Source of the DNA: a virus
Lineage: Duplodnaviria; Caudoviricetes
DNA: 56,609 nucleotides
Strand: one strand, 5' to 3'
IMG/VR virus record: IMGVR_UViG_3300028615_000096
Span: 1 to 56,609 of that record
The position numbers and the translations under genes are program-made. Below, in pieces: positions 42,866-56,609 of the stretch (its first letter is position 1; each line of letters starts with the position of its first letter). The notes under the pieces are model-generated. The model was not told the origin of the DNA. It saw only the letters and a list, made by a program, of their open reading frames with translations, and searched no databases.

Positions 42866-42943
42866 GTGCCAGAGGCCCAATCGGACGGGCGGCCGGACTA
42901 ATCACCCGGACGGCTGCGGGTTCGAACCCCGCCTGGCGCACCA
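42866..42943 (+). tRNA. Atypical tRNA-like RNA (9-nt loop ACTAATCAC; nominal AAT)
   Basis: Acceptor GTGCCAG/CTGGCGC+ACCA, D arm, T arm GCGGG-TTCGAAC-CCCGC; irregular anticodon arm. Confidence 0.7.
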
Positions 42944-43058
42944 CTGCGTGGAGTCCCGGAAGCGGCAGGACCGGGGAGGGGCGTTGCTTCCCCTCTGGCT
43001 GGGGTTGTGAGCGCTCAGAAGTCCAGCACGGGTTCGAATCCCGCGCGCGCAGTGACCA
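42942..43058 (+). ncRNA. Oversized tRNA-like RNA
   Basis: CACTGCGTG/CGCGCAGTG+ACCA, long D-like arm, GAGGGG/CCCCTC arm with 8-nt loop, long extra arm, GGTTCGAATCC T loop. Confidence 0.65.
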
Positions 43059-43060
43059 AT

Positions 43061-43146
43061 GGAGACGTAGCTCAGTTGGCAGAGCACCGGTGAAGCGCCG
43101 CGCGCCGATCCGGAGGTCGGAGGTTCAAGTCCTCCCGTCTCCCCCA
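43061..43146 (+). tRNA. tRNA-like RNA with 17-19-nt anticodon loop, no assignable anticodon
   Basis: Perfect GGAGACG/CGTCTCC+CCCA, canonical D and T arms; CCGG-tgaagcgccgcgcgccgat-CCGG. Confidence 0.8.
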
Positions 43147-43185
43147 TGCACCTGGTCTGCTCCGAAAGGGGCGGGGGTGCGCCAA

Positions 43186-43267
43186 GCAGGGGTAGCTCAG
43201 TTGGTTAGAGCGCCGTGGTTGATCACCACCACGGAGGTCGGAGGTTCGAGTCCTGCCCCCTGCGCCA
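43186..43267 (+). tRNA. tRNA-like RNA with 7-bp anticodon stem and 8-nt loop
   Basis: GCAGGGG/CCCCTGC+GCCA, canonical D arm; CCGTGGT-tgatcacc-ACCACGG. Confidence 0.8.
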
Positions 43268-43268
43268 T

Positions 43269-43610
43269 TTACTCCGTCAGGTCCGGCGGTGCTTCGTGAA
43301 CCCCGCTCGCTGGCTCCTGCTTCTCTGCGGTGCCCTCTTCGAGCAACTTCACATTCCACAGCGGGATCGGGGTGTAGACCCTGATCTGCCAGCCGCCGGG
43401 CTCGTAGTTGTCCTGCCCCAGCATGGGCTCGTAGTCGACCTCCAGAATGACGTCGCCGTATTGCCGTGCCTCTTCGAGGTCACGAGCCAGGTAAGTGCAG
43501 CGCGCCACTGGCTTGCCGGTGATCGGACTGCGTCCCCGATCGCCGTGGAGCGCGCCCTGCTTCTGGATGCGTTCCCACGCCTCGCGCGTGGTGCCGTGGT
43601 ACCAGACCAC
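43269..43610 (-). CDS. Small ADP-ribosyltransferase-fold protein (Tpt1/KptA-like NAD-binding lobe)
   Basis: WYHGT....ERI...G, TYLA.D...A..YG.VILEV, W....PIP motifs. Confidence 0.65.
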   Translation of the reverse strand: MVWYHGTTREAWERIQKQGALHGDRGRSPITGKPVARCTYLARDLEEARQYGDVILEVDYEPMLGQDNYEPGGWQIRVYTPIPLWNVKLLEEGTAEKQEPASGVHEAPPDLTE

Positions 43611-49374: not shown

Positions 49375-49887
49375 ATGTCGAAGCTGATCGTGCATCTGTT
49401 CACGCTCCCGTTCATGCCGGTGAGCTATCTCTACGTGCTGGGCGCGTGCCTCATCGGGCTGGCGCACAAGGTCTCGTTCACGGACTGGGTGCTGACCGCG
49501 CAGTGGCGCCCGTGGTTTGCCGAGCGCTGGCGCTACTCGACCACGGTGGGCCTGGGCATCATCTACCAGCCGGACAGCCGCACCAACACGCGCATCGTCA
49601 ACCACGAACATGTGCACGTGCGCCAGCACCAGGACGAGATGCTCCGGGCGCTGTTGATCGGCCTGGGCGTGTACGCCGCCACCGGTTCCTGGATCACGGG
49701 GCTGTGCATCTGGCTGCTGGGCGGCGCGTTCCGCCTCACCAACTTCATCACCGCCGGACTCCGCTTCGGCTGGGCCAACGTCTACCGGGACAGCGAGCAC
49801 GAGCGCAGCGCCTACGCGCAGACGGATCTGTGGACCGGTGGGAAGTCCTGGAGCGACTTCCGCGACGGGGCGAGAAATAGTTCTTGA
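49375..49887 (+). CDS. Membrane protein with HExxH motif
   Basis: AGGAG RBS; IVNHEHVHVRQ and E.SAYA; several TM helices. Confidence 0.7.
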   Translation: MSKLIVHLFTLPFMPVSYLYVLGACLIGLAHKVSFTDWVLTAQWRPWFAERWRYSTTVGLGIIYQPDSRTNTRIVNHEHVHVRQHQDEMLRALLIGLGVYAATGSWITGLCIWLLGGAFRLTNFITAGLRFGWANVYRDSEHERSAYAQTDLWTGGKSWSDFRDGARNSS

Positions 49888-49966: not shown

Positions 49967-50049
49967 CCGGGTGAGGGGAACGGTATCCCAAGCCGGCTGT
50001 AAACCGGTGCGTTCGCGCAGTGCTGGTTCGAATCCAGCCACCCGGACCA
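49967..50049 (+). tRNA. tRNA-Tyr(GTA)
   Basis: Loop CT-GTA-AA; long variable arm; CCGGGTG/CACCCGG+ACCA. Confidence 0.88.
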
Positions 50050-50105
50050 AGACGATGAGAACGCTCAGCCACAGCGAGAGCTTTATCAGCCTGGTTTTTG
50101 ACCAT

Positions 50106-50181
50106 GGCCTGGTAGCTCAGTCGGTAGAGCGGCTGCCTGAAGAGCAGCGCGTCGGCGGTTCGAGTCCGTCCCAGGCCACCA
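50106..50181 (+). tRNA. tRNA-Phe(GAA)
   Basis: Loop CT-GAA-GA; full cloverleaf with CCA. Confidence 0.92.
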
Positions 50182-50191
50182 TGGATACGTG

Positions 50192-50296
50192 CGTGGCGAT
50201 CGGGATGGAGCGCAAGCAGGCGACCTGGAATACCAGGGAGCGTGCCATGCGGGCTGGCTGAGACACCAGGGACGCGCTCCATACATACCCGCCACG
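50192..50296 (+). ncRNA. Structured inter-tRNA RNA 1
   Basis: CGTGGCG/CGCCACG and ATGGAGCGC/GCGCTCCAT stems enclosing two CTGG/CCAG hairpins. Confidence 0.65.
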
Positions 50297-50307
50297 TTGG
50301 TGAGCAT

Positions 50308-50350
50308 TGCAGGGTAGCCAAGCGGTAAGGCGCAGGCTAAGTTAACCTGC
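50308..50350 (+). pseudogene. 5' half remnant of tRNA-Asn
   Basis: TGCAGGG-TA-D arm-GCAGG-ctaagttaa-CCTGC, then the HNH ATG; no T arm. Confidence 0.7.
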
Positions 50351-50737
50351 ATGCGCAACGGACCCTACGAGATGGTACTCGTGCCGGAGGGCTACCCCGG
50401 TAAGCGGTACAGAGGCAGGTACTGCTACGAGCACCACTTGGTGTGGTGGCAGAACACAGGACGCCTCGTACGTCCTGGCTACTTGTTGCACCACAAGAAC
50501 GAGAATAAGCGCGACAACCGCTTCAGCAATCTAGAGGAGATCACCAGAGCAAAACACACTTCGCAGCACGCCTCTGAACGCGCACCTGATCTGATTCAAG
50601 TCTCGTGTGGTTGGTGCTCCAAACCGATGGAGCTGAAGCCGCACGTCTACAAGGAACGCATGAAGAGCAAGCCCCACGGACTGCTGTTTTGCAGTCGTAG
50701 CTGCGGCGCGAAGCACCAACATTCCGAGGTAGCATAA
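50351..50737 (+). CDS. HNH homing endonuclease with C-terminal zinc finger
   Basis: EHHLVW...HHKNENKRDNRFSNL...H; CGWC...FCSRSC. Confidence 0.9.
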   Translation: MRNGPYEMVLVPEGYPGKRYRGRYCYEHHLVWWQNTGRLVRPGYLLHHKNENKRDNRFSNLEEITRAKHTSQHASERAPDLIQVSCGWCSKPMELKPHVYKERMKSKPHGLLFCSRSCGAKHQHSEVA

Positions 50738-50795
50738 CCGGCAATGCACCTGATTGTTACTCAGGGCTATGGGGGTTCGAAGCCCTCCCTCGGAG
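50723..50795 (+). tRNA. tRNA-Asn(GTT)
   Basis: Loop TT-GTT-AC; TCCGAGG/CCTCGGA. Confidence 0.88.
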
Positions 50796-50828
50796 CCGGA
50801 CTAAAGCAAAAGCCACGTAGCAGCCAAC

Positions 50829-50903
50829 GCTCCTGCGCCGATCGGACGGCAGCCGGTGTTCTAAGCCGGTGATTTCCAGGTTCGAGTCCTGGCGGGAGCG
50901 CCA
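50829..50903 (+). tRNA. tRNA-Arg(TCT)
   Basis: Loop GT-TCT-AA; irregular D arm; CCA. Confidence 0.8.
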
Positions 50904-50905
50904 AC

Positions 50906-50981
50906 GGGTTCGTAGCTCAACAGGCAGAGCACCCGGCTCTTACCCGGGTTGTTGTGGGTTCGAAGCCCACCGGACCCACCA
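50906..50981 (+). tRNA. tRNA-Lys(CTT)
   Basis: Loop CT-CTT-AC; CCA. Confidence 0.92.
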
Positions 50982-51075
50982 CTTTTAGCGAAACCGAGAC
51001 CCCACTAAAACAATCGCTACAACAGATCGGACAATGCAAAGGAGGAGAGACAAACGCAGGTGCTGCACCCATCGA

Positions 51076-51148
51076 GGGGGTGGCACCCGACTGGACGGGC
51101 CCCGGGCTTTTACCCCGGATTGAGTGGGTTCGAGCCCCACCGCCCCCA
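51076..51148 (+). tRNA. tRNA-Lys(TTT)
   Basis: Loop CT-TTT-AC; atypical positions 8-9. Confidence 0.8.
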
Positions 51149-51153
51149 CTGCT

Positions 51154-51243
51154 GGAAGGACGGCGAAGTATTGGAGAGTCGCGCGCGCCTGCTAAGCGCG
51201 TGGTCACGCAAGTGGCCTGTGGGTTCGATCCCCACTCCTTCCG
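51154..51243 (+). tRNA. tRNA-Ser(GCT)
   Basis: Loop CT-GCT-AA; long variable arm; G73. Confidence 0.9.
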
Positions 51244-51300
51244 CCGCGGCCTAGGTCGCAACGTTCTCTGACAACCGAATACGTTGCCAAGTACACACGG

Positions 51301-51438
51301 GGAGCCGTGGGCACAGCGGGTAGCCGCGCGCTATGCGAAAGCGCGGGTCCGGGTGGTCACGGCCTCCGTAAGGCCACCGTGGGCGCCACGGTCCTGGCGT
51401 GACTGCTAGGACGTCTGTGCCGGTCACGGTGGCCTCCA
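51301..51438 (+). ncRNA. Structured inter-tRNA RNA 2
   Basis: CCGTG/CACGG and GGCACAG/CTGTGCC closing stems around a multibranch loop. Confidence 0.65.
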
Positions 51439-51440
51439 AT

Positions 51441-51513
51441 AGGTCAGTAGCTCAGCTGGAAGAGCAGCAGATTCCAAACCTGCGTGTCGGGGGTTCGAAT
51501 CCCTCCTGGCCTG
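51441..51513 (+). tRNA. tRNA-Trp(CCA)
   Basis: Loop TT-CCA-AA. Confidence 0.92.
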
Positions 51514-51572
51514 CCGGCGGCCAAGCGGCATGGAAGCCCTATGGTGAGGGGTAGCGCCCTCACACGCCTTAT

Positions 51573-51646
51573 GAGGCGCAGTCCGATCGGCTAGGAAGCG
51601 GTCTGCAAAACCGCTGTGGCGGGTTCGATTCCCGCGCGCCTCTCCA
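51573..51646 (+). tRNA. tRNA-Cys(GCA)
   Basis: Loop CT-GCA-AA; U73; CCA. Confidence 0.9.
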
Positions 51647-51648
51647 AC

Positions 51649-51724
51649 GCCCTCGAAGCACAACTGGAAGTGCTCCCGGTTTGTACCCGGGCGGCTGCAG
51701 GTTCGAATCCTGTCGGGGGCTCCA
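51649..51724 (+). tRNA. tRNA-Thr(TGT)
   Basis: Loop TT-TGT-AC; CCA. Confidence 0.9.
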
Positions 51725-51725
51725 C

Positions 51726-51797
51726 GGGGATGTGGCCAAATGGGAAGGCACCTGCCTTGCAAGCAGACGATTGCGGGTTCGAATCCCGCCATCTCCA
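51726..51797 (+). tRNA. tRNA-Ala(TGC)
   Basis: Loop CT-TGC-AA; G3-U70. Confidence 0.9.
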
Positions 51798-51814
51798 CCC
51801 GGGTAGAGTCGGGC

Positions 51815-51962
51815 ACGCCAGCAAGAGGGCTGGCGTTGGTCGGCTCGTGCTGCGCACCCACGTAAGCCGCAGCGCCTGTTCCAGAGTTTGGGTGCACCAG
51901 CCCTTCAGGCTGGCCAGCAGTCAGGCTCGCAGCACTTGGTGCCGGAGCGCAGCGGAGCGACC
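51815..51962 (+). ncRNA. Structured inter-tRNA RNA 3
   Basis: ACGCCAGC/GCTGGCGT hairpin, then GGTCG-GCTC-GCTGCGC / GCGCAGC-GAGC-GACC closing stem with inner GCACCCA/TGGGTGC and CCAGCC/GGCTGG arms. Confidence 0.6.
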
Positions 51963-51996
51963 CTTCGATCTGTGACGCAGTAGGTGCTGCACCTAT

Positions 51997-52068
51997 GCCC
52001 GGTTAGCTCAGAGGCAGAGCACCGCTTTTACACGGCGGGGGACGGGGTTTCGAAATCCTCACCGGGTA
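51997..52068 (+). tRNA. tRNA-Val(TAC)
   Basis: Loop TT-TAC-AC. Confidence 0.9.
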
Positions 52069-52142
52069 CCGACGCGTTGGCGCGCGCGTTCCTCTGCTGC
52101 TCACGCGGCTTGGAGAAGGGGCCACCATACCTCGCGCCACTC

Positions 52143-52215
52143 GGGGGCATAGCTCAGTCGGGAGAGCGTCTGCATGGCATGCAGAAGGTCGCGGGTTCGA
52201 TTCCCGCTGCTTCCA
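52143..52215 (+). tRNA. tRNA-Ala(GGC)
   Basis: Loop AT-GGC-AT; G3-U70. Confidence 0.92.
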
Positions 52216-52217
52216 CC

Positions 52218-52319
52218 GCGCACCTGTAGTCGTAGCGCTCACGGTGTTGCACCATTCACGGTGCGGGACGCAGGAAGCCCTGCGGGCGAGCTAGGCGTCG
52301 TCCGCGGCTACAGGGGCGC
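52218..52319 (+). ncRNA. Structured RNA directly upstream of the HNH gene
   Basis: GCGC-CCTGTAGTCG / CGGCTACAGG-GCGC closing stem; inner GCACC/GGTGC and CGCAGG/CCTGCG hairpins. Confidence 0.65.
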
Positions 52320-52343
52320 AACTACTTCGAAAGGAGGTGCCCC

Positions 52344-52880
52344 ATGACGGCACGGACTCTGGTGTTGGATCAGGGGTACCAACCCCATCGAATAGTCAGC
52401 TGGCGGCGAGCCGTGACCATGCTGTTCGCCGGCAAGGTAGAGGTGGTCGAGGAGTACGACGAGGAGATCAGATCGGTCACCATCTCCATCAAGATGCCCG
52501 CCGTCGTGCGGCTCATCAGGAAGGCGACCGGCCGGCCGCCCAAGGTCCGCTTCAGCCGGATCAACATCATGGCGCGGGACAACTTCCGCTGCCAATACTG
52601 CGGCAAGCGCGGGACGCGCGGGGAGCTGAACCTGGACCACGTGCTGCCGCGGGCACAGGGAGGCACTAGCCGGTGGGAGAACATCGCCACCAGCTGCATC
52701 CCCTGCAACACCCAGAAGGGAAACAGAACGCCCGAGCAGGCGGGCATGAAGCTGCGGAAGCAGCCCAGACGCCCGCACAGCTTGCCGGAGCTGACGATCC
52801 GGTTGGAGTACGGAGACAGCATCCCGGATGCCTGGGCCTCGTACTGCTACTGGAACCTCTCCATCGAGGAGGGGAGCTGA
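52344..52880 (+). CDS. HNH endonuclease (McrA-like) with PLMP-like N-terminus
   Basis: AAGGAGG RBS; RDNFRCQYCG...LDHVLPR..GG...WENI..SC..CN..KG; N-terminal LVLD.GY.P...SW.RA..ML..GKVEVV. Confidence 0.92.
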   Translation: MTARTLVLDQGYQPHRIVSWRRAVTMLFAGKVEVVEEYDEEIRSVTISIKMPAVVRLIRKATGRPPKVRFSRINIMARDNFRCQYCGKRGTRGELNLDHVLPRAQGGTSRWENIATSCIPCNTQKGNRTPEQAGMKLRKQPRRPHSLPELTIRLEYGDSIPDAWASYCYWNLSIEEGS

Positions 52881-52884
52881 CAAG

Positions 52885-52911
52885 GAGGTGCGGCTCTTCG
52901 GAGCCCACCTC
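52885..52911 (+). other. Hairpin with UUCG tetraloop after the HNH stop
   Basis: GAGGTG-c-GGCTC-ttcg-GAGCC-CACCTC. Confidence 0.6.
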
Positions 52912-52915
52912 GACT

Positions 52916-52986
52916 GCGCGTATGGCCGAGAGGCAAGGCACCAGGCTTCCACCCTGGACACGCGGGTTCGAGTCCCGCTGCGCGCT
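52916..52986 (+). tRNA. tRNA-Gly(TCC)
   Basis: Loop CT-TCC-AC; U73. Confidence 0.9.
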
Positions 52987-52989
52987 CTA

Positions 52990-53206
52990 ATCCGGAGACG
53001 CGGGTTCGAATCCCGTCATCTTGGCGCTGTAAGTCGCCCCCAGATCAGATCGTAAGTCGTCCATGCCAACATCCACCCCAGGGGCCCCTGGGGACTCAGG
53101 ACGCCGCAAGGCGGAGTGCCGAAAGGCCACCGGGATACGGCTGCGCAAGACGTCGATCAGGGCGTTAGCACATGCCTGGGTGTAGCTCAGAGGTAGAGCA
53201 CCGGAT
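52990..53206 (+). ncRNA. Circularly permuted tRNA-like RNA (T arm first, D arm last)
   Basis: ATCCGG-agac-T arm-CATCTTGGCG ... TGCCTGGGTG-ta-D arm-a-CCGGAT; the halves pair with each other. Confidence 0.8.
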
Positions 53207-53209
53207 GTC

Positions 53210-53285
53210 GCGGTAGTAGCTCAGCTGGAAGAGTGCCTGCTTGCCAAGCAGGAGGCCATGGGTTCGAGACCCATCTACCGCACCA
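53210..53285 (+). tRNA. tRNA-Gly(GCC)
   Basis: Loop TT-GCC-AA; CCA. Confidence 0.92.
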
Positions 53286-53347
53286 GGGTGTGCCCGCATC
53301 CTGTTCAAGTCCCCGGTGGCCGGGTGCAAGTCCACCGGGGAAACCAA

Positions 53348-53424
53348 TGGCCCGTAGCTCAGTCAGTCAGAGCGCCCGCCTGATAAGCGGGAGGTCGTGG
53401 GGGCAGAACCCGCCGGGCCAACCA
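53348..53424 (+). tRNA. tRNA-Ile(GAT)
   Basis: Loop CT-GAT-AA; atypical T loop GGCAGAA; CCA. Confidence 0.85.
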
Positions 53425-53425
53425 A

Positions 53426-53500
53426 GGACGCGTAACTCAGAGGAAGAGTGCTGCCTCGACAAGGCAGAAGCCGCAGGTTCAAATCCCGCCGCGTCCACCA
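53426..53500 (+). tRNA. tRNA-Val(GAC)
   Basis: Loop TC-GAC-AA; CCA. Confidence 0.88.
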
Positions 53501-53501
53501 T

Positions 53502-53576
53502 GGGGATGTAGCTCAGTGGAAGAGTACCCGTCTCATAAGCGGGCTGGCGTGGGTTCGATTCCCACCATCCCTACCA
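53502..53576 (+). tRNA. tRNA with CAT anticodon (elongator Met or Ile2)
   Basis: Loop CT-CAT-AA; CCA. Confidence 0.88.
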
Positions 53577-53578
53577 AC

Positions 53579-53655
53579 GTCGCGTTCTTCTAGCAGGCCA
53601 AGGATCTCGGGCCCTCAACCCGAAGACACGGGTTCAAATCCCGTACGCGACACCA
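53579..53655 (+). tRNA. tRNA-Glu(CTC)
   Basis: Loop CC-CTC-AA; CCA. Confidence 0.88.
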
Positions 53656-53657
53656 AT

Positions 53658-53733
53658 GCAGCGGTCGTCTAGCGGCCAGGATGCCGGGCTTTCAATCCGG
53701 TCGACGCGGGTTCGAATCCCGTCCGCTGCACCA
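53658..53733 (+). tRNA. tRNA-Glu(TTC)
   Basis: Loop CT-TTC-AA; CCA. Confidence 0.9.
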
Positions 53734-53739
53734 ACTCAT

Positions 53740-53817
53740 GCCTCCGCGGTCCAGCCAGGAGTGACCGTCCGCCTGTCACGCGGGAGAACGTCGGTTCGAA
53801 TCCGATCGGGGGCGCCA
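53740..53817 (+). tRNA. tRNA-Asp(GTC)
   Basis: Loop CT-GTC-AC; G73; CCA. Confidence 0.9.
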
Positions 53818-53896
53818 AGCACGCAGGGGACTCATGGGCGCTAGAGCGGCCGGGCCCCCTCGCCCGCTCAACAGCGTCGGTGTCCTGCGTGCTTTT
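53818..53896 (+). ncRNA. Long irregular hairpin RNA
   Basis: AGCACGCAGG/CCTGCGTGCT, GCGCT/AGCGT and GAGCGG/CCGCTC stacked stems with internal loops. Confidence 0.6.
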
Positions 53897-53972
53897 GCCC
53901 GGGTAGCTCAGTGGAAGAGCATCGGTCTACGAAGCCGAGTTGTCGGGGGTTCGAATCCCTCTCCGGGTGCCA
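53897..53972 (+). tRNA. tRNA-Arg(ACG)
   Basis: Loop CT-ACG-AA; CCA. Confidence 0.92.
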
Positions 53973-53973
53973 T

Positions 53974-54044
53974 TGGGGCATCGTCTAACGGCAGGACAGC
54001 GTCTTCTGGTGGCGCTTATCGGGGTTCGAATCCCTGTGCCCCAG
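53974..54044 (+). tRNA. tRNA-Gln(CTG)
   Basis: Loop TT-CTG-GT; U1-A72. Confidence 0.9.
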
Positions 54045-54046
54045 CC

Positions 54047-54181
54047 GGTGTGTGGAGGGTATCTTGCTGCGATCCGGGGAGTTGGCACGCTCCGCCGGGG
54101 TAGTCACGGTTGAAAGTTGCCCGTACTTGTTTGAAAGCAAGCAAGGTTAGGTCAGCCTAGGCAGGGGGCGTTCCACACACC
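54047..54181 (+). ncRNA. Structured inter-tRNA RNA 4
   Basis: GGTGTGTGGA/TCCACACACC perfect 10-bp closing stem around about four hairpins. Confidence 0.7.
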
Positions 54182-54184
54182 TTT

Positions 54185-54260
54185 GATCGCGTAGCTCAGT
54201 CGGAAGAGCATCGGTCTCCGAAGCCGAAGGTCGTGGGTTCGACCCCCACCGCGATCGCCA
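54185..54260 (+). tRNA. tRNA-Arg(CCG)
   Basis: Loop CT-CCG-AA; CCA. Confidence 0.92.
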
Positions 54261-54547
54261 CGCCGTAGAGCAAGTGTCGTTCAACTGGTGGCGCAGGAAG
54301 GCAGGGGACGCCCTGTTGGATCGCGTCGGCAATTGCGGGGCACGCAGTAGGGAAGCTGGATCTGCCACCACGACTGCACGCGATGCAGAGCCCGCACAGT
54401 GTGTGGCGTGGGACCTCGGGTCGCGCGTTTGCAGGGCTTGTAGCTGCGCGCGGAAGTGGTCAAGCCGCGAAGGTGGAACTGCTGGTGGAAAAGCTCGCTG
54501 CTGTGGGTCAGCAGAGGATGCAGGTGGGAATCCTGCCGGCGTGAACA
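54259..54547 (+). ncRNA. Large tRNA-shaped RNA with about 235-nt structured insert
   Basis: CACGCCG/CGGCGTG acceptor, TA, D arm GAGC/GTTC, T-like arm GCAGG-tgggaat-CCTGC, tail AACA. Confidence 0.7.
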
Positions 54548-54549
54548 AT

Positions 54550-54622
54550 GCCTGTGAAGCTCAAGTGGCCGAGCACCCGTTTCGTACTCGGGAGGTAGTG
54601 GGTTCGACTCCCATCGCAGGCC
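54550..54622 (+). tRNA. tRNA-Thr(CGT)
   Basis: Loop TT-CGT-AC. Confidence 0.88.
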
Positions 54623-54626
54623 CCGA

Positions 54627-54655
54627 TTGACAGCGCTCTAGGATAGACGTAGTTT
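54627..54655 (+). promoter_or_regulatory. Sigma70-like promoter in front of the HNH gene
   Basis: TTGACA-17 nt-TAGTTT. Confidence 0.65.
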
Positions 54656-54664
54656 TGTGGCTCC

Positions 54665-55042
54665 TTGCCCTACAAAGACCCAGAAGCGCGTAGAGCTTAC
54701 CAACGGAATCGGAACCGTAAGCGGCGCGAGGAGTGGTTGGCAGCTAACGGACCCTGCGCTGTGTGCGGGTCCTGGGAGAAGCTGGAAGTCGATCACGTTG
54801 ATCCGGCAACGAAACTGAACCACAGAGTTTGGTCGTGGAGCGCAGTGCGCATGAAAGCGGAGCTAGCGAAGTGCCAGGTGCTGTGCCGCGTGCACCACAA
54901 GGCAAAAACCACGGCTGACCGGTTCAGCAGAGTGCAGCACGGGACGCGTCACATGTACGAGCGCTACAGGTGCAGGTGCTCGAAGTGTTGCGCTGCCAAG
55001 GCGGCACACAACGCGCTTCGTGATGAGCGCGGCTATAGATAA
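54665..55042 (+). CDS. HNH endonuclease
   Basis: CAVCGS.EKLEVDHVDP.TK...ELAKCQVLCRVHH..KT; HGT..MY...CRC..C. Confidence 0.88.
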   Translation: MPYKDPEARRAYQRNRNRKRREEWLAANGPCAVCGSWEKLEVDHVDPATKLNHRVWSWSAVRMKAELAKCQVLCRVHHKAKTTADRFSRVQHGTRHMYERYRCRCSKCCAAKAAHNALRDERGYR

Positions 55043-55046
55043 TCAA

Positions 55047-55121
55047 CGGGGTGTGGCGCAGTGGAAGCGCGCCGGTTCGGGGAACCGGAGGTCGTGGGTT
55101 CGAGTCCCACTACCCCGACCA
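55047..55121 (+). tRNA. tRNA-Pro(GGG)
   Basis: Loop TC-GGG-GA; C1-G72; CCA. Confidence 0.9.
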
Positions 55122-55126
55122 TCAAT

Positions 55127-55201
55127 GCCCATGTAGCTCAGTGGCAGAGCACACCCCCGGTAAGGGTGCGGTCGTGAGTTCGACTCTCACTGTGGGCTCC
55201 A
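55127..55201 (+). tRNA. tRNA-Thr(GGT)
   Basis: Loop CC-GGT-AA; CCA. Confidence 0.9.
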
Positions 55202-55406
55202 CGTCCCTGCTTCACCTGCGGCAGGTAGAACTGGCGGTCTGGAGGGAGGTCTGCACCAAGCGTGCAGGGCTGCCAAAGGAAAGCGGGCTCCATGCTCCCA
55301 CGGGCCGGCGGTGGGCGTAGCGAGTGGGTCCAATGAGGAAGTCTGTGCAGCATGCCCGTAGCGGCTACGCGGGTTGCACGGGGTTGCTCAGGGCCAGCCG
55401 GATTAT
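55202..55406 (+). ncRNA. Possible structured inter-tRNA RNA 5
   Basis: TGGCGGTC/GGCTGCCA arm with CTGCAC/GTGCAG, CCCAC/GTGGG and GTGCAGC/GTTGCAC arms; no convincing ORF. Confidence 0.45.
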
Positions 55407-55481
55407 GCTCCCGATGCCGATAGGATAGGCACCCACCTCCTAAGTGGGCTGCAGCAGGTTCGAGTCCTGCCGGGAGCGCCA
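55407..55481 (+). tRNA. tRNA-Arg(CCT)
   Basis: Loop CT-CCT-AA; CCA. Confidence 0.88.
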
Positions 55482-55757
55482 CACTTCCAGCGCCGCCGCA
55501 TAACCGCCCAGCCGGTAGGCGGCCGCAACATCTGCCGGGATCCGCCGCGGGTGCATGTCCAACTCGAACCACATGCCGTCGCACCACACGCTGTTGTGCG
55601 CGTCCTGACAAGGCCCCGTCCTCCACACCTCGATGAGTCCCTTGCAGAACTTGCACCAGAAGTGGCCGGCCTTGGTGTCCGCGTCGTACTGCGGTACCTG
55701 CACCTGCGTGTCCGCGTACGCCTTGCAGCAGGGGCACACCGCGTCTTCCATGCTCAT
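55440..55757 (-). CDS. Small zinc-ribbon protein antisense to the array
   Basis: CPCC...CKFC; strong GC3 bias on the minus strand; fills the 290-nt gap between tRNAs. Confidence 0.65.
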   Translation of the reverse strand: MSMEDAVCPCCKAYADTQVQVPQYDADTKAGHFWCKFCKGLIEVWRTGPCQDAHNSVWCDGMWFELDMHPRRIPADVAAAYRLGGYAAALEVWRSRQDSNLLQPT

Positions 55758-55774
55758 GTATTACCAGATCACCT

Positions 55775-55848
55775 TGGGGTATCGTCCAAAGGCAGGACCT
55801 GGAGTTTTGGCCTCCAAGATCGGGGTTCGATTCCCTGTGCCCCAACCA
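55775..55848 (+). tRNA. tRNA-Gln(TTG)
   Basis: Loop TT-TTG-GC; CCA. Confidence 0.9.
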
Positions 55849-55892
55849 ACTTCGTACTTGACAACGTGTCCGGTTCCTCTCACGTTAGGCGC

Positions 55893-55978
55893 TGCGGGGA
55901 TAGAGCAACGGCCGCTCGTAGGGCTCATAACCCTATGCCTCAACGGTTAGGCTGGTTCGACTCCAGCTCCCGCAACCA
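55893..55978 (+). tRNA. Initiator-type tRNA-Met(CAT) with enlarged variable region
   Basis: TAGGG-CTCATAA-CCCTA with three G-C pairs; about 15-nt variable region; CCA. Confidence 0.8.
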
Positions 55979-56066
55979 AGAGTTAGTCAGATGTTCTGCT
56001 TCATCCCGACGCCAACCAAGCCTGCACGTGCTGCTTCCAGCACGCGTGCAGGCGTGTGCGTTTCCT

Positions 56067-56138
56067 CGGGGTGTAAGTCAGCGGCAGACGGCTCCGTTCG
56101 GGGCGGAGAGGTCGTGGGTTCGAGTCCCACCACCCCGA
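56067..56138 (+). tRNA. tRNA-Pro(CGG)
   Basis: Loop TT-CGG-GG. Confidence 0.9.
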
Positions 56139-56236
56139 CTACTTCCCATCGTTCCTCGCTCCTCCTGTTGATCTAGCGCTACGCACCGTAGTGCCGGTTC
56201 GCCGGTGTGTGTAGCGCGGAACCAGCAGAAGCTCTT

Positions 56237-56312
56237 GGTGCCTGAACGCGAATGGTGAGCGGCGCGGTTGTGGTCCGCGTGGAAGCGGGGTCAGTACCCG
56301 TCAGGCACCCCA
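56237..56312 (+). tRNA. tRNA-His(GTG)
   Basis: Loop TT-GTG-GT; G-1:C73; atypical T loop; CCA. Confidence 0.85.
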
Positions 56313-56313
56313 A

Positions 56314-56389
56314 GGCTGTGTATCCCAACGGCAGAGGACGCCGGCTAAGAACCGGTCCAGTGTGGGTTCGAATCCCTCCGCAGCCACCA
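56314..56389 (+). tRNA. tRNA-Leu(AAG), short variable loop
   Basis: GCCGG-CT-AAG-AA-CCGGT; CCA. Confidence 0.85.
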
Positions 56390-56390
56390 T

Positions 56391-56469
56391 GGTCGTGTAG
56401 CCCAACTTGGCAGGAGGCGTCTGGCTCAGAACCAGAACAGTGTGGGTTCGAATCCCTCCACGACCACCA
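56391..56469 (+). tRNA. tRNA-Leu(CAG), short variable loop
   Basis: Loop CT-CAG-AA; CCA. Confidence 0.9.
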
Positions 56470-56510
56470 TGTAGCCCAATAGGTTGACTTTGTAGCAAAT
56501 AGGTAGATAC

Positions 56511-56588
56511 GCTCCTGTGGCCCAACGAGGCAGAGGCGTTCGGTTCAAAACCGAAATGTTGAAGGTTCGAATCCTTCCGGGAGCACCA
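56511..56588 (+). tRNA. tRNA-Leu(CAA), short variable loop
   Basis: Loop TT-CAA-AA; CCA. Confidence 0.9.
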
Positions 56589-56609
56589 ACATGGCTGGGT
56601 CGCGGGAAT

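Follow-up and report, generated by a model that had tools for sequence, protein, structure and literature searches.

What occupies the gaps between the genes of a bacteriophage tRNA array? Such arrays are usually annotated as tRNAs separated by empty gaps, and we have looked beyond this convention for the array at positions 49967-56588 (+ strand) of the IMG/VR record IMGVR_UViG_3300028615_000096. The window analysed here is the entire record, a 56,609-base contig with a GC content of about 64% and a CheckV completeness estimate of 54%, whose capsid, tape measure, baseplate and amidase-like lysis genes identify an uncultured tailed phage. One public DNA sequencing run, from a marine sediment metagenome, contains the stretch and is probably the source of the contig. 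An initial annotation had proposed that a single transcript of the array delivers 35 or more tRNAs together with a panel of structured noncoding RNAs (ncRNAs) that might constitute an RNA-based counter-defence arsenal.

We find that the contents of the gaps are mixed, and include endonuclease genes with folded leaders, a small antisense gene, tRNAs that had been missed, tRNA derivatives and seven unique folds. On balance, we favour the reading that this is a plus-strand phage tRNA operon similar in kind to that of phage T4, that free-standing HNH genes have invaded it three times, and that its seven folds work in cis within the long precursor RNA and may persist as by-product RNAs. The locus is of an ordinary kind and is richer than its annotation, with a mostly familiar architecture and a few real puzzles.

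Seven stable folds on the transcribed strand

The case for structured RNA begins with folding stability. We compared 21 spacers of 41-698 nt with dinucleotide shuffles and obtained z-scores below -3.7 for five of them (six if the spacer bearing the second HNH gene is counted), compared with two of 135 windows (80, 140 or 195 nt) drawn at random from elsewhere in the contig (Fisher p = 0.0005). Trimming to the non-coding, non-tRNA parts defines seven elements of 79-197 nt, which were retested singly and have z-scores of -3.2 to -5.3. The 12 true tRNAs tested have a mean of -1.72, which is weaker than all seven folds. Furthermore, the sense strand has the more negative score in every one of the seven elements (sign test p = 0.016), with the minus strands ranging from -1.9 to -3.6. 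This bias favours folds at the RNA level over symmetric palindromes in the DNA. Folds far stabler than chance on the transcribed strand thus occupy a minority of the gaps, and these seven are real.

The folds differ in shape. Spacer A (51246-51440, +; entered at 51301 in the initial annotation) has a z-score of -4.35 (on retesting, -4.10 on the plus strand versus -3.16 on the minus strand), contains no open reading frame (ORF) with a coding signal, and forms three hairpins in a row rather than one closed unit. Spacer B (51800-51996, +; entered at 51815; z -3.73, retested at -4.23 versus -2.01) is ORF-free and adopts a weakly closed, four-hairpin fold. The closed, multi-stem fold at 52218-52319 (+; z -3.93 versus -2.45) begins directly 3' of tRNA-Ala(GGC) and is the 5' leader of the second HNH gene, with which it makes up spacer 52218-52915. 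Spacer C (53818-53896, +; z -4.91, retested at -5.30 versus -3.55) is a single irregular hairpin of ~30 bp that is closed end to end across the entire gap and is followed by TTTT. Spacer D (54047-54184, +; z -4.41, retested at -3.96 versus -3.43) is also closed end to end, by an 11-bp stem with a branched interior; it is followed by TTT and has 10 G-U pairs on the plus strand and none on the minus strand. Spacer E (55979-56066, +; z -4.11, retested at -3.62 versus -2.13) has its main hairpin at 56020-56053, and the seventh element is a structured leader before tRNA-His (56140-56237, +; z -3.34, retested at -3.22 versus -1.93).

Placement is equally distinctive for some of these elements. The folds at 52218, 53818 and 54047 start no more than 1 nt from a tRNA 3' end, and those at 53818 and 54047 stop 3 nt short of the next tRNA. 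Release of the tRNAs would therefore be expected to release these folds as well, through the same enzymes.

Eight spacers had initially been described as lacking a credible ORF and folding as closed end-to-end units near tRNA ends, and this description holds in part. Four of them (A to D) are ORF-less and fold far below their shuffles, and the closed form applies to C and D, although not to the hairpin row of A or the weakly closed B. Two others, at 50192 and 52218, each contain an HNH gene, and so the claim of no credible ORF fails there. The remaining two fold like their shuffles (52988-53209, entered at 52990, z -1.2; 54261-54549, entered at 54259, z -1.5). Similarly, a subset of distinct and unusually stable folds does lie flush with tRNA ends, but several of the supposed spacers are tRNAs or derivatives of tRNAs. 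Coding regions were separated from non-coding regions by periodicity in GC content at third codon positions (GC3), which reaches 0.81-0.89 in sure genes. A coding signal is present in three HNH ORFs and in an ORF at 55440-55757 (-), giving four genes within the array overall, and in none of the structured spacers.

Comparative evidence

A second haplotype was recovered among independent Logan contigs of the source run. It covers 55375-56315 and differs by 13 substitutions and one deletion. Every change falls in one of the spacers on either side of the tRNA at 55893-55978, and element 56140-56237, the ORF and the tRNAs are identical. Spacer E is altered at 11 positions (~12.5% local divergence). 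Within its main hairpin, a T-A pair becomes C-G and an A-T pair becomes G-T with no pair broken, and the folding energy changes from -25.0 to -28.0 kcal/mol, while two pairs are broken in the outer helix of the spacer. When the same changes are placed at random, a compensatory change without a break arises in 4.8% of 20,000 trials. The second haplotype gives weak but real support to hairpin 56020-56053 alone. The clustering of changes in 55375-56315 could mark a local recombination tract or a hypervariable spot.

More distant relatives were sought in several collections. Megablast and blastn comparisons of the array with 50,697 phage records matched tRNA-sized pieces and one HNH gene only. Scans of IMG/VR with the gene upstream of the array, an internal ORF of the array and exact patterns of 28 and 21 bases yielded no relatives, and the internal ORF had no match in a metagenome scan. 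In contrast, the capsid protein (350-1282) identifies 12 IMG/VR contigs at 66-78% identity and, in the metagenome scan, 12 loci with up to 78% identity over full-length matches. The five longest of the 12 IMG/VR contigs contain no tRNA match, and ARAGORN finds zero and one tRNA in two complete capsid-relative genomes (47% and 70% GC). Since these capsid relatives lack the array, the 35-tRNA cluster is lineage-specific or recently acquired. The best homologue of the upstream gene among 5.8 billion proteins is 55% identical, and 22 of the 31 loci carrying this gene (those with E 1e-9 or better; the nine weakest were left out) were scanned and hold 0-3 tRNAs each.

Searches of the array with Rfam recover tRNA as the sole passing family. 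The folds match no non-tRNA family even when blocks of 108-865 bases are searched with the laxest filters, and the best non-tRNA matches in spacers reach 13-18 bits, compared with cut-offs of 36-126. Neither GOLLD nor ROOL, large RNAs that had been put forward as precedents, is matched. The folds do not recur as repeats elsewhere in the contig.

How might the folds act?

Phage T4 is a precedent. One T4 transcript gives rise to eight tRNAs, the species I and II RNAs and the segB mRNA, and a hairpin has been proposed to occlude the segB start (PMC2330249). Folds that form independently in the precursor of the present array would allow neighbouring tRNAs to fold correctly, and they might offer double-stranded entry sites or act as exonuclease blocks. 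Folds followed by a T run might serve as partial terminators that set tRNA dosage, and those beside nuclease genes might control access to start codons. RNase P and tRNA 3'-end enzymes would then release the folds as by-product small RNAs, like species I and II of T4. A single transcript for all 35 tRNAs, as was first proposed, is uncertain because of the minus-strand gene at 55440-55757 and the hairpins followed by T runs.

Several observations weigh against a cis-acting role. Elsewhere in the array, tRNAs are packed 1-6 nt apart, which means that spacers are unneeded for processing and that a role in cis is not forced. A scan for consensus terminators, which covers loops of 3-8 only, flags none of the seven folds, and the T runs after spacers C and D are, by reading, just four and three long. 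The seven folds share no sequence similarity with each other, which is not what a single shared mechanism would obviously lead one to expect. A homologous array was not found in the phage records, IMG/VR or metagenome scans, and therefore covariation rests on two haplotypes of one element. Likewise, the public runs matched to the stretch comprise the single DNA run, with no RNA run listed. Co-transcription, processing and any function of the folds are therefore inferred; the observations themselves are the genes and tRNAs, the excess stability and sense-strand bias of the folds, and one compensatory change. Finally, free RNAs acting in trans would account just as well for the bias and the flush ends.

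Among other explanations, the one that survives best, although we consider it unlikely, is that the folds are neutral debris. They would be decayed leftovers of tRNAs or endonuclease genes, or GC-rich palindromes at the DNA level, and would have no function as RNA. The array does contain tRNA fragments (52988-53209 and 54461-54547) and unstructured gaps (54261-54460, 55202-55406 and 50982-51075), the minus strands of the folds also have negative z-scores, and the lack of an array in capsid-level relatives suggests that it is young or mobile. However, the folds carry no trace of either proposed origin. With R1, a covariance model trained on 26 class-I tRNAs of the array, they score at most 9.7 bits, which is under the antisense-tRNA noise of 13.2, and tblastn with the array's own HNH proteins gives spacer matches of E ~0.1 or weaker. 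Moreover, debris should not be expected to exceed true tRNAs in stability, to favour the sense strand in seven of seven cases, or to retain a hairpin through compensatory change.

We consider it more doubtful still that the structured spacers form a panel of free, trans-acting ncRNAs that tRNA processing excises and the phage deploys against the defences of its host. Seven distinct, stable, sense-strand folds with members flush to tRNA ends are what such a panel would look like, and there are precedents. The E. coli spacer RNA 3'ETS-leuZ base-pairs with the sRNAs RyhB and RybB (PMC6191717), and GOLLD resides within a mycobacterial tRNA cluster (PMC6582537). Yet the folds have no Rfam family even at lax thresholds, no relatives in the collections searched and no defence-related neighbour, and their complementarity to targets is not beyond chance. 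The divergence of spacer E between co-occurring haplotypes, with its hairpin kept, further suggests that shape matters and sequence does not. Given that no element has an Rfam family, a homologue or another link to defence, the proposed counter-defence arsenal is speculation.

Self-cleaving ribozymes of the theta or hepatitis delta virus (HDV)-like type, trimming tRNAs at their 3' ends, are largely refuted and are very improbable here, even though several folds start exactly at a tRNA 3' end and theta ribozymes occupy such sites in many gut phages (PMC10879173). Our scan for the nested double pseudoknot used our own permissive descriptor, not that of PMC10879173, with the type of control used there. 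It finds nine start sites with the catalytic C, compared with 9, 9 and 12 when A, G or T is substituted and 5-14 in shuffled arrays, and all of the sites are more than 5 nt away from any tRNA 3' end. No Rfam ribozyme family is matched, and CCA is encoded at or near the called 3' end of 25 of the 35 tRNAs in this array, compared with 4.5% of theta-associated tRNAs (PMC10879173).

A circularly permuted tRNA-like gene

One of the gaps that folds at chance level holds a striking circularly permuted tRNA-like gene (52988-53209, +), bounded by two neighbouring tRNAs. Its 3' half (52988-53024, +) runs from the third anticodon base to the discriminator and matches R1 positions 36-76 at 17.9 bits; Rfam reports the same segment as a 5'-truncated tRNA match (24.3 bits, covering model positions 35-71). 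A 151-nt linker (53025-53175, +; fold z -0.86) closes the acceptor end. The 5' half (53176-53209, +) supplies the acceptor strand, the D-arm, the anticodon stem and four loop bases, and matches R1 positions 1-35 at 16.3 bits. The 3' half starts 1-2 nt after tRNA-Gly(UCC), which ends at 52986 (Rfam) or 52987 (ARAGORN), and the 5' half ends at the base preceding tRNA-Gly(GCC), which starts at 53210. The ends of the search blocks for both halves were chosen by us, though they follow the boundaries of the neighbouring tRNAs.

When the halves are rejoined, ARAGORN with default settings calls tRNA-Arg(UCU) with a score of 113.8, compared with 101.6-122.0 for the 32 tRNAs called in the array, and the call persists with an 8-base loop if C52987 is included. 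Joining the ends of each of 17 spacers in this manner produces a call for 52988-53209 only, and 4000 random joins produce none; of 756 chimeras made from halves of unrelated tRNAs, 85 are called. Four of 992 mismatched half pairs equal the stem complementarity of this unit, with six of seven acceptor pairs together with a full anticodon stem (5/5), and none of the 992 does so with five Watson-Crick pairs. A contig from a second assembler spans the region without difference, probably from the same reads.

It is an even call whether this unit is a functionless relic of rearrangement, as opposed to a YrlA-like tRNA mimic or a functional permuted tRNA. Arginine tRNAs usually carry A20, and the rejoined sequence has T at this site, together with G33, a T-T mismatch at acceptor pair 2-71 and no encoded CCA. 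These features all speak against decoding, as does the normal tRNA-Arg(UCU) at 50829-50903, and the linker is not specially folded. A relic, on the other hand, would not be expected to have halves that fit each other better than nearly all mismatched pairs, that adjoin both neighbouring tRNAs with the model split exactly at 35/36, and that regain a score within the range of the called tRNAs in an arrangement present in both assemblies.

It seems improbable that the 222-nt unit functions as a circularly permuted tRNA gene of a bacteriophage, but the steps can be outlined. Maturation of the two flanking tRNA-Gly, by 3'-end cleavage upstream and RNase P downstream, would leave a 5'-phosphate and a 3'-hydroxyl facing each other in the anticodon loop. 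An Rnl-type RNA ligase of phage or host might seal these ends, after which the 151-nt linker might be lost through RNase P cleavage and 3' trimming at the acceptor stem of 7 bp. One possible product is a tRNA that decodes AGA (or, with C52987 retained, a four-base codon); the other is a nicked molecule that looks like a tRNA and keeps anticodon nucleases or repair enzymes occupied. The 56.6-kb contig, which is estimated as 54% complete, has no RtcB or Ro60 gene, and there is no RNA-repair gene among the neighbouring ORFs. Among the matches listed in the literature, no title or abstract describes a permuted tRNA gene in a phage.

Protein genes inside the array

Three ORFs in the array are, by family and by their free-standing position among tRNAs, predicted to be homing endonucleases. 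HNH gene 1 (50351-50737, +; 128 aa) matches Pfam HNH_3 (E 1.9e-10; 40.6 bits versus a cut-off of 24.8), has a GC3 value of 0.72 and terminates at a stop codon within tRNA-Asn. It lies in spacer 50182-50722 (entered at 50192), whose z-score is -3.1. HNH gene 2 (52344-52880, +; 178 aa; GC3 0.89) matches HNH_5 (E 8.6e-15) and HNH (E 1.2e-13), with 54.9 bits versus a cut-off of 27.5. A strong Shine-Dalgarno sequence, AAGGAGGTG, is located upstream of this gene after the leader fold, and a hairpin (52885-52911) lies beyond its stop codon. HNH gene 3 (54665-55042, +; 125 aa) matches phrog_4234 (E 5.9e-40), and relatives with 51% identity adjoin the tRNA cluster of Bixzunavirus phages. Overall, the HNH profiles scored above their curated cut-offs are PF13392, PF14279 and PF01844, in addition to phrog_4234. 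HNH genes have been described in or beside tRNA arrays of bacteria and phages (PMC8421152, PMC6582537), and Lukilu is an example of such an arrangement.

The fourth gene is a Cys-rich ORF of 105 aa (55440-55757, -) that has a GC3 value of 0.89 and a ribosome-binding site, and that matches no Pfam or PHROG family. Its C-terminal codons are antisense to the T-arm of tRNA-Arg(CCU), and its transcription would oppose that of the tRNA operon.

Census of tRNA genes

The operon contains 35 complete tRNA genes for all 20 amino acids, all on the plus strand, in agreement with the dense one-strand array of 35 or more tRNAs first described. With default settings, ARAGORN reports 32 of these, which match Rfam RF00005 (gathering score 29 bits) at 36-70 bits, the long-arm representatives matching the clan. 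Three genes complete the set. tRNA-Ile(GAU) (53348-53421, +) scores 56.4 bits with both Rfam and R1 and was missed by ARAGORN. tRNA-Arg(UCU) (50829-50903, +) scores 46.4 bits with R1 and was missed by whole-window scans; Rfam detects 50829-50900 at 31.9 bits, versus the cut-off of 29, when short blocks are searched with lax filters. Its normal loop, GUUCUAA, establishes the Arg-UCU identity. tRNA-His(GUG) (56238-56312, +) scores 43.6 bits with R1 and 96.9 with relaxed ARAGORN, and the sole Rfam match there is tRNA-Sec at 18.8 bits. We take it as tRNA-His because the ARAGORN drawing and the sequence reveal a GUG anticodon, G-1 opposite C73 and an encoded CCA, in a full cloverleaf with a non-canonical T-loop. 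R1 scores Arg-UCU and His-GUG highly though neither is in its training set. The T-loops of Ile-GAU (GGCAGAA) and His-GUG (GTCAGTA) are both non-canonical, and these genes were therefore overlooked by ARAGORN or Rfam.

Other tRNA-like segments are less complete or less regular. A degenerate remnant at 54461-54547 (+) scores 15.7 bits with R1 (E 0.0032) and is otherwise seen by relaxed ARAGORN only. Three further relaxed candidates (51304-51375, 51909-52004 and 55338-55408) failed on R1 scoring or closer inspection. The 86-nt tRNA at 55893-55978 (Rfam 39.7 bits) has a CAU anticodon. Its variable arm is long and its acceptor stem irregular, which is unusual for a tRNA of the Met or Ile2 type. The 62-nt gap at 53286-53347 (z -2.0) has a 9-bp hairpin with a T-loop-like loop and ends in AAACCA right before the next tRNA, and so resembles an acceptor minihelix. 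The array probably continues past the end of the contig; the final 21 bases (56589-56609) repeat the pattern of a tRNA end plus the start of the next tRNA that occurs at 50712-50733.

Some neighbouring features also deserve mention. Three further tRNAs form a group of their own ~7 kb upstream of the array, in the region of 42866-43267 and 43269-43610 (-), and one of these is called as Ile with the rare anticodon AAT. An adjoining ORF of 113 aa has a weak PARP-like match (E 0.0018). The gene directly before the array (49375-49887) is a member of a phage family that is widespread and has no assigned function (74 homologues, the best 55% identical). Its product has invariant H77, E78 and H81, forming an HExxH-like motif, and it is located downstream of spanin-like and amidase-like lysis genes.

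Implications for phage tRNA operons

Default annotation of this locus overlooks three tRNAs with odd T-loops, a back-to-front tRNA and four protein genes, of which three are mobile nuclease genes and one is antisense. If the folds are elements for processing or dosage, they would explain how 35 tRNAs from one operon are tuned. If the permuted unit is processed, the biology of permuted and split tRNAs, or Y-RNA-like mimicry without the Ro60 handle, would extend to phage tRNA operons, and there might be a link to the contest between phage and host over tRNA cleavage and repair. Should this unit work and the seven folds be released, the operon would manufacture non-standard RNAs in addition to tRNAs.

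Comparison with known systems

The permuted unit resembles the tRNA-like domain of YrlA RNAs in layout, and is not a member of this class. This domain is ordered as variable region, T-arm, acceptor stem-loop and D-arm; the M. smegmatis YrlA, whose acceptor stem is 7 bp long, is cleaved by RNase P and has CCA added (PMC4201824). The unit at 52988-53209 follows the same order (R1 positions 36-76, then 1-35), but it keeps both parts of the anticodon loop and has its 151-nt insert where YrlA has a stem-loop. The Ro60-binding motif GNCGAAN0-1G is absent near its 5' end, and GNCGAAG is unseen by reading in 52988-53030. GNCGAANG occurs within the unit only at 53118, in the linker, and its 51 occurrences in the window, with 42 expected, correspond to chance frequency. 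A TROVE gene (PF05731) is missing from the 56.6-kb contig, although at an estimated completeness of 54% the rest of the genome could have a distant rsr. RF02553 (cut-off 69 bits) has no match at 52988-53209, and the weak matches of this family, which do not exceed 25.4 bits, are all to ordinary tRNAs next to the unit.

A second comparison is with the 34 known permuted tRNA genes of unicellular algae and archaea, which have bulge-helix-bulge (BHB) motifs, linkers of 1-74 bp, and junctions at 20/21, 37/38, 50/51 and 59/60 (PMC3978253). Those genes and the present unit share a reversed order, with the 3' half preceding the 5' half on the same strand, and in each case joining the two restores a full cloverleaf. 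The phage unit differs in having its junction at 35/36, a 151-nt linker and ends that are set by flanking tRNAs. Bacteria are not known to have a splicing endonuclease of the BHB type.

The folds can be set beside two other kinds of RNA from tRNA transcripts. Like theta ribozymes, some are folded RNAs that begin at a phage tRNA 3' end; they differ in that HDV-like topology is no more frequent here than in controls, most of the tRNAs carry CCA, and the source is marine sediment and not gut. Like 3'ETS-leuZ, they are non-tRNA pieces of a tRNA transcript, although no target is predicted for them.

At the level of the whole locus, the mycobacterial '32 tRNA cluster' with GOLLD, the cyanobacterial L-arrays and the arrays of Bixzunavirus are also long, with HNH genes, pseudo-tRNAs and sometimes a large ncRNA (PMC6582537, PMC8421152). 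Unlike those mobile array units, the present array has no match to GOLLD or ROOL and no alignable counterpart in the collections searched. The cluster of T4 is much smaller, with eight tRNAs versus 35 and one GIY-YIG gene versus three HNH genes. The seven folds described here are mutually unrelated, and there is no sequence similarity to T4. What the two phages have in common is the combination of a same-strand tRNA cluster, a free-standing homing-endonuclease gene and folded RNAs other than tRNAs.

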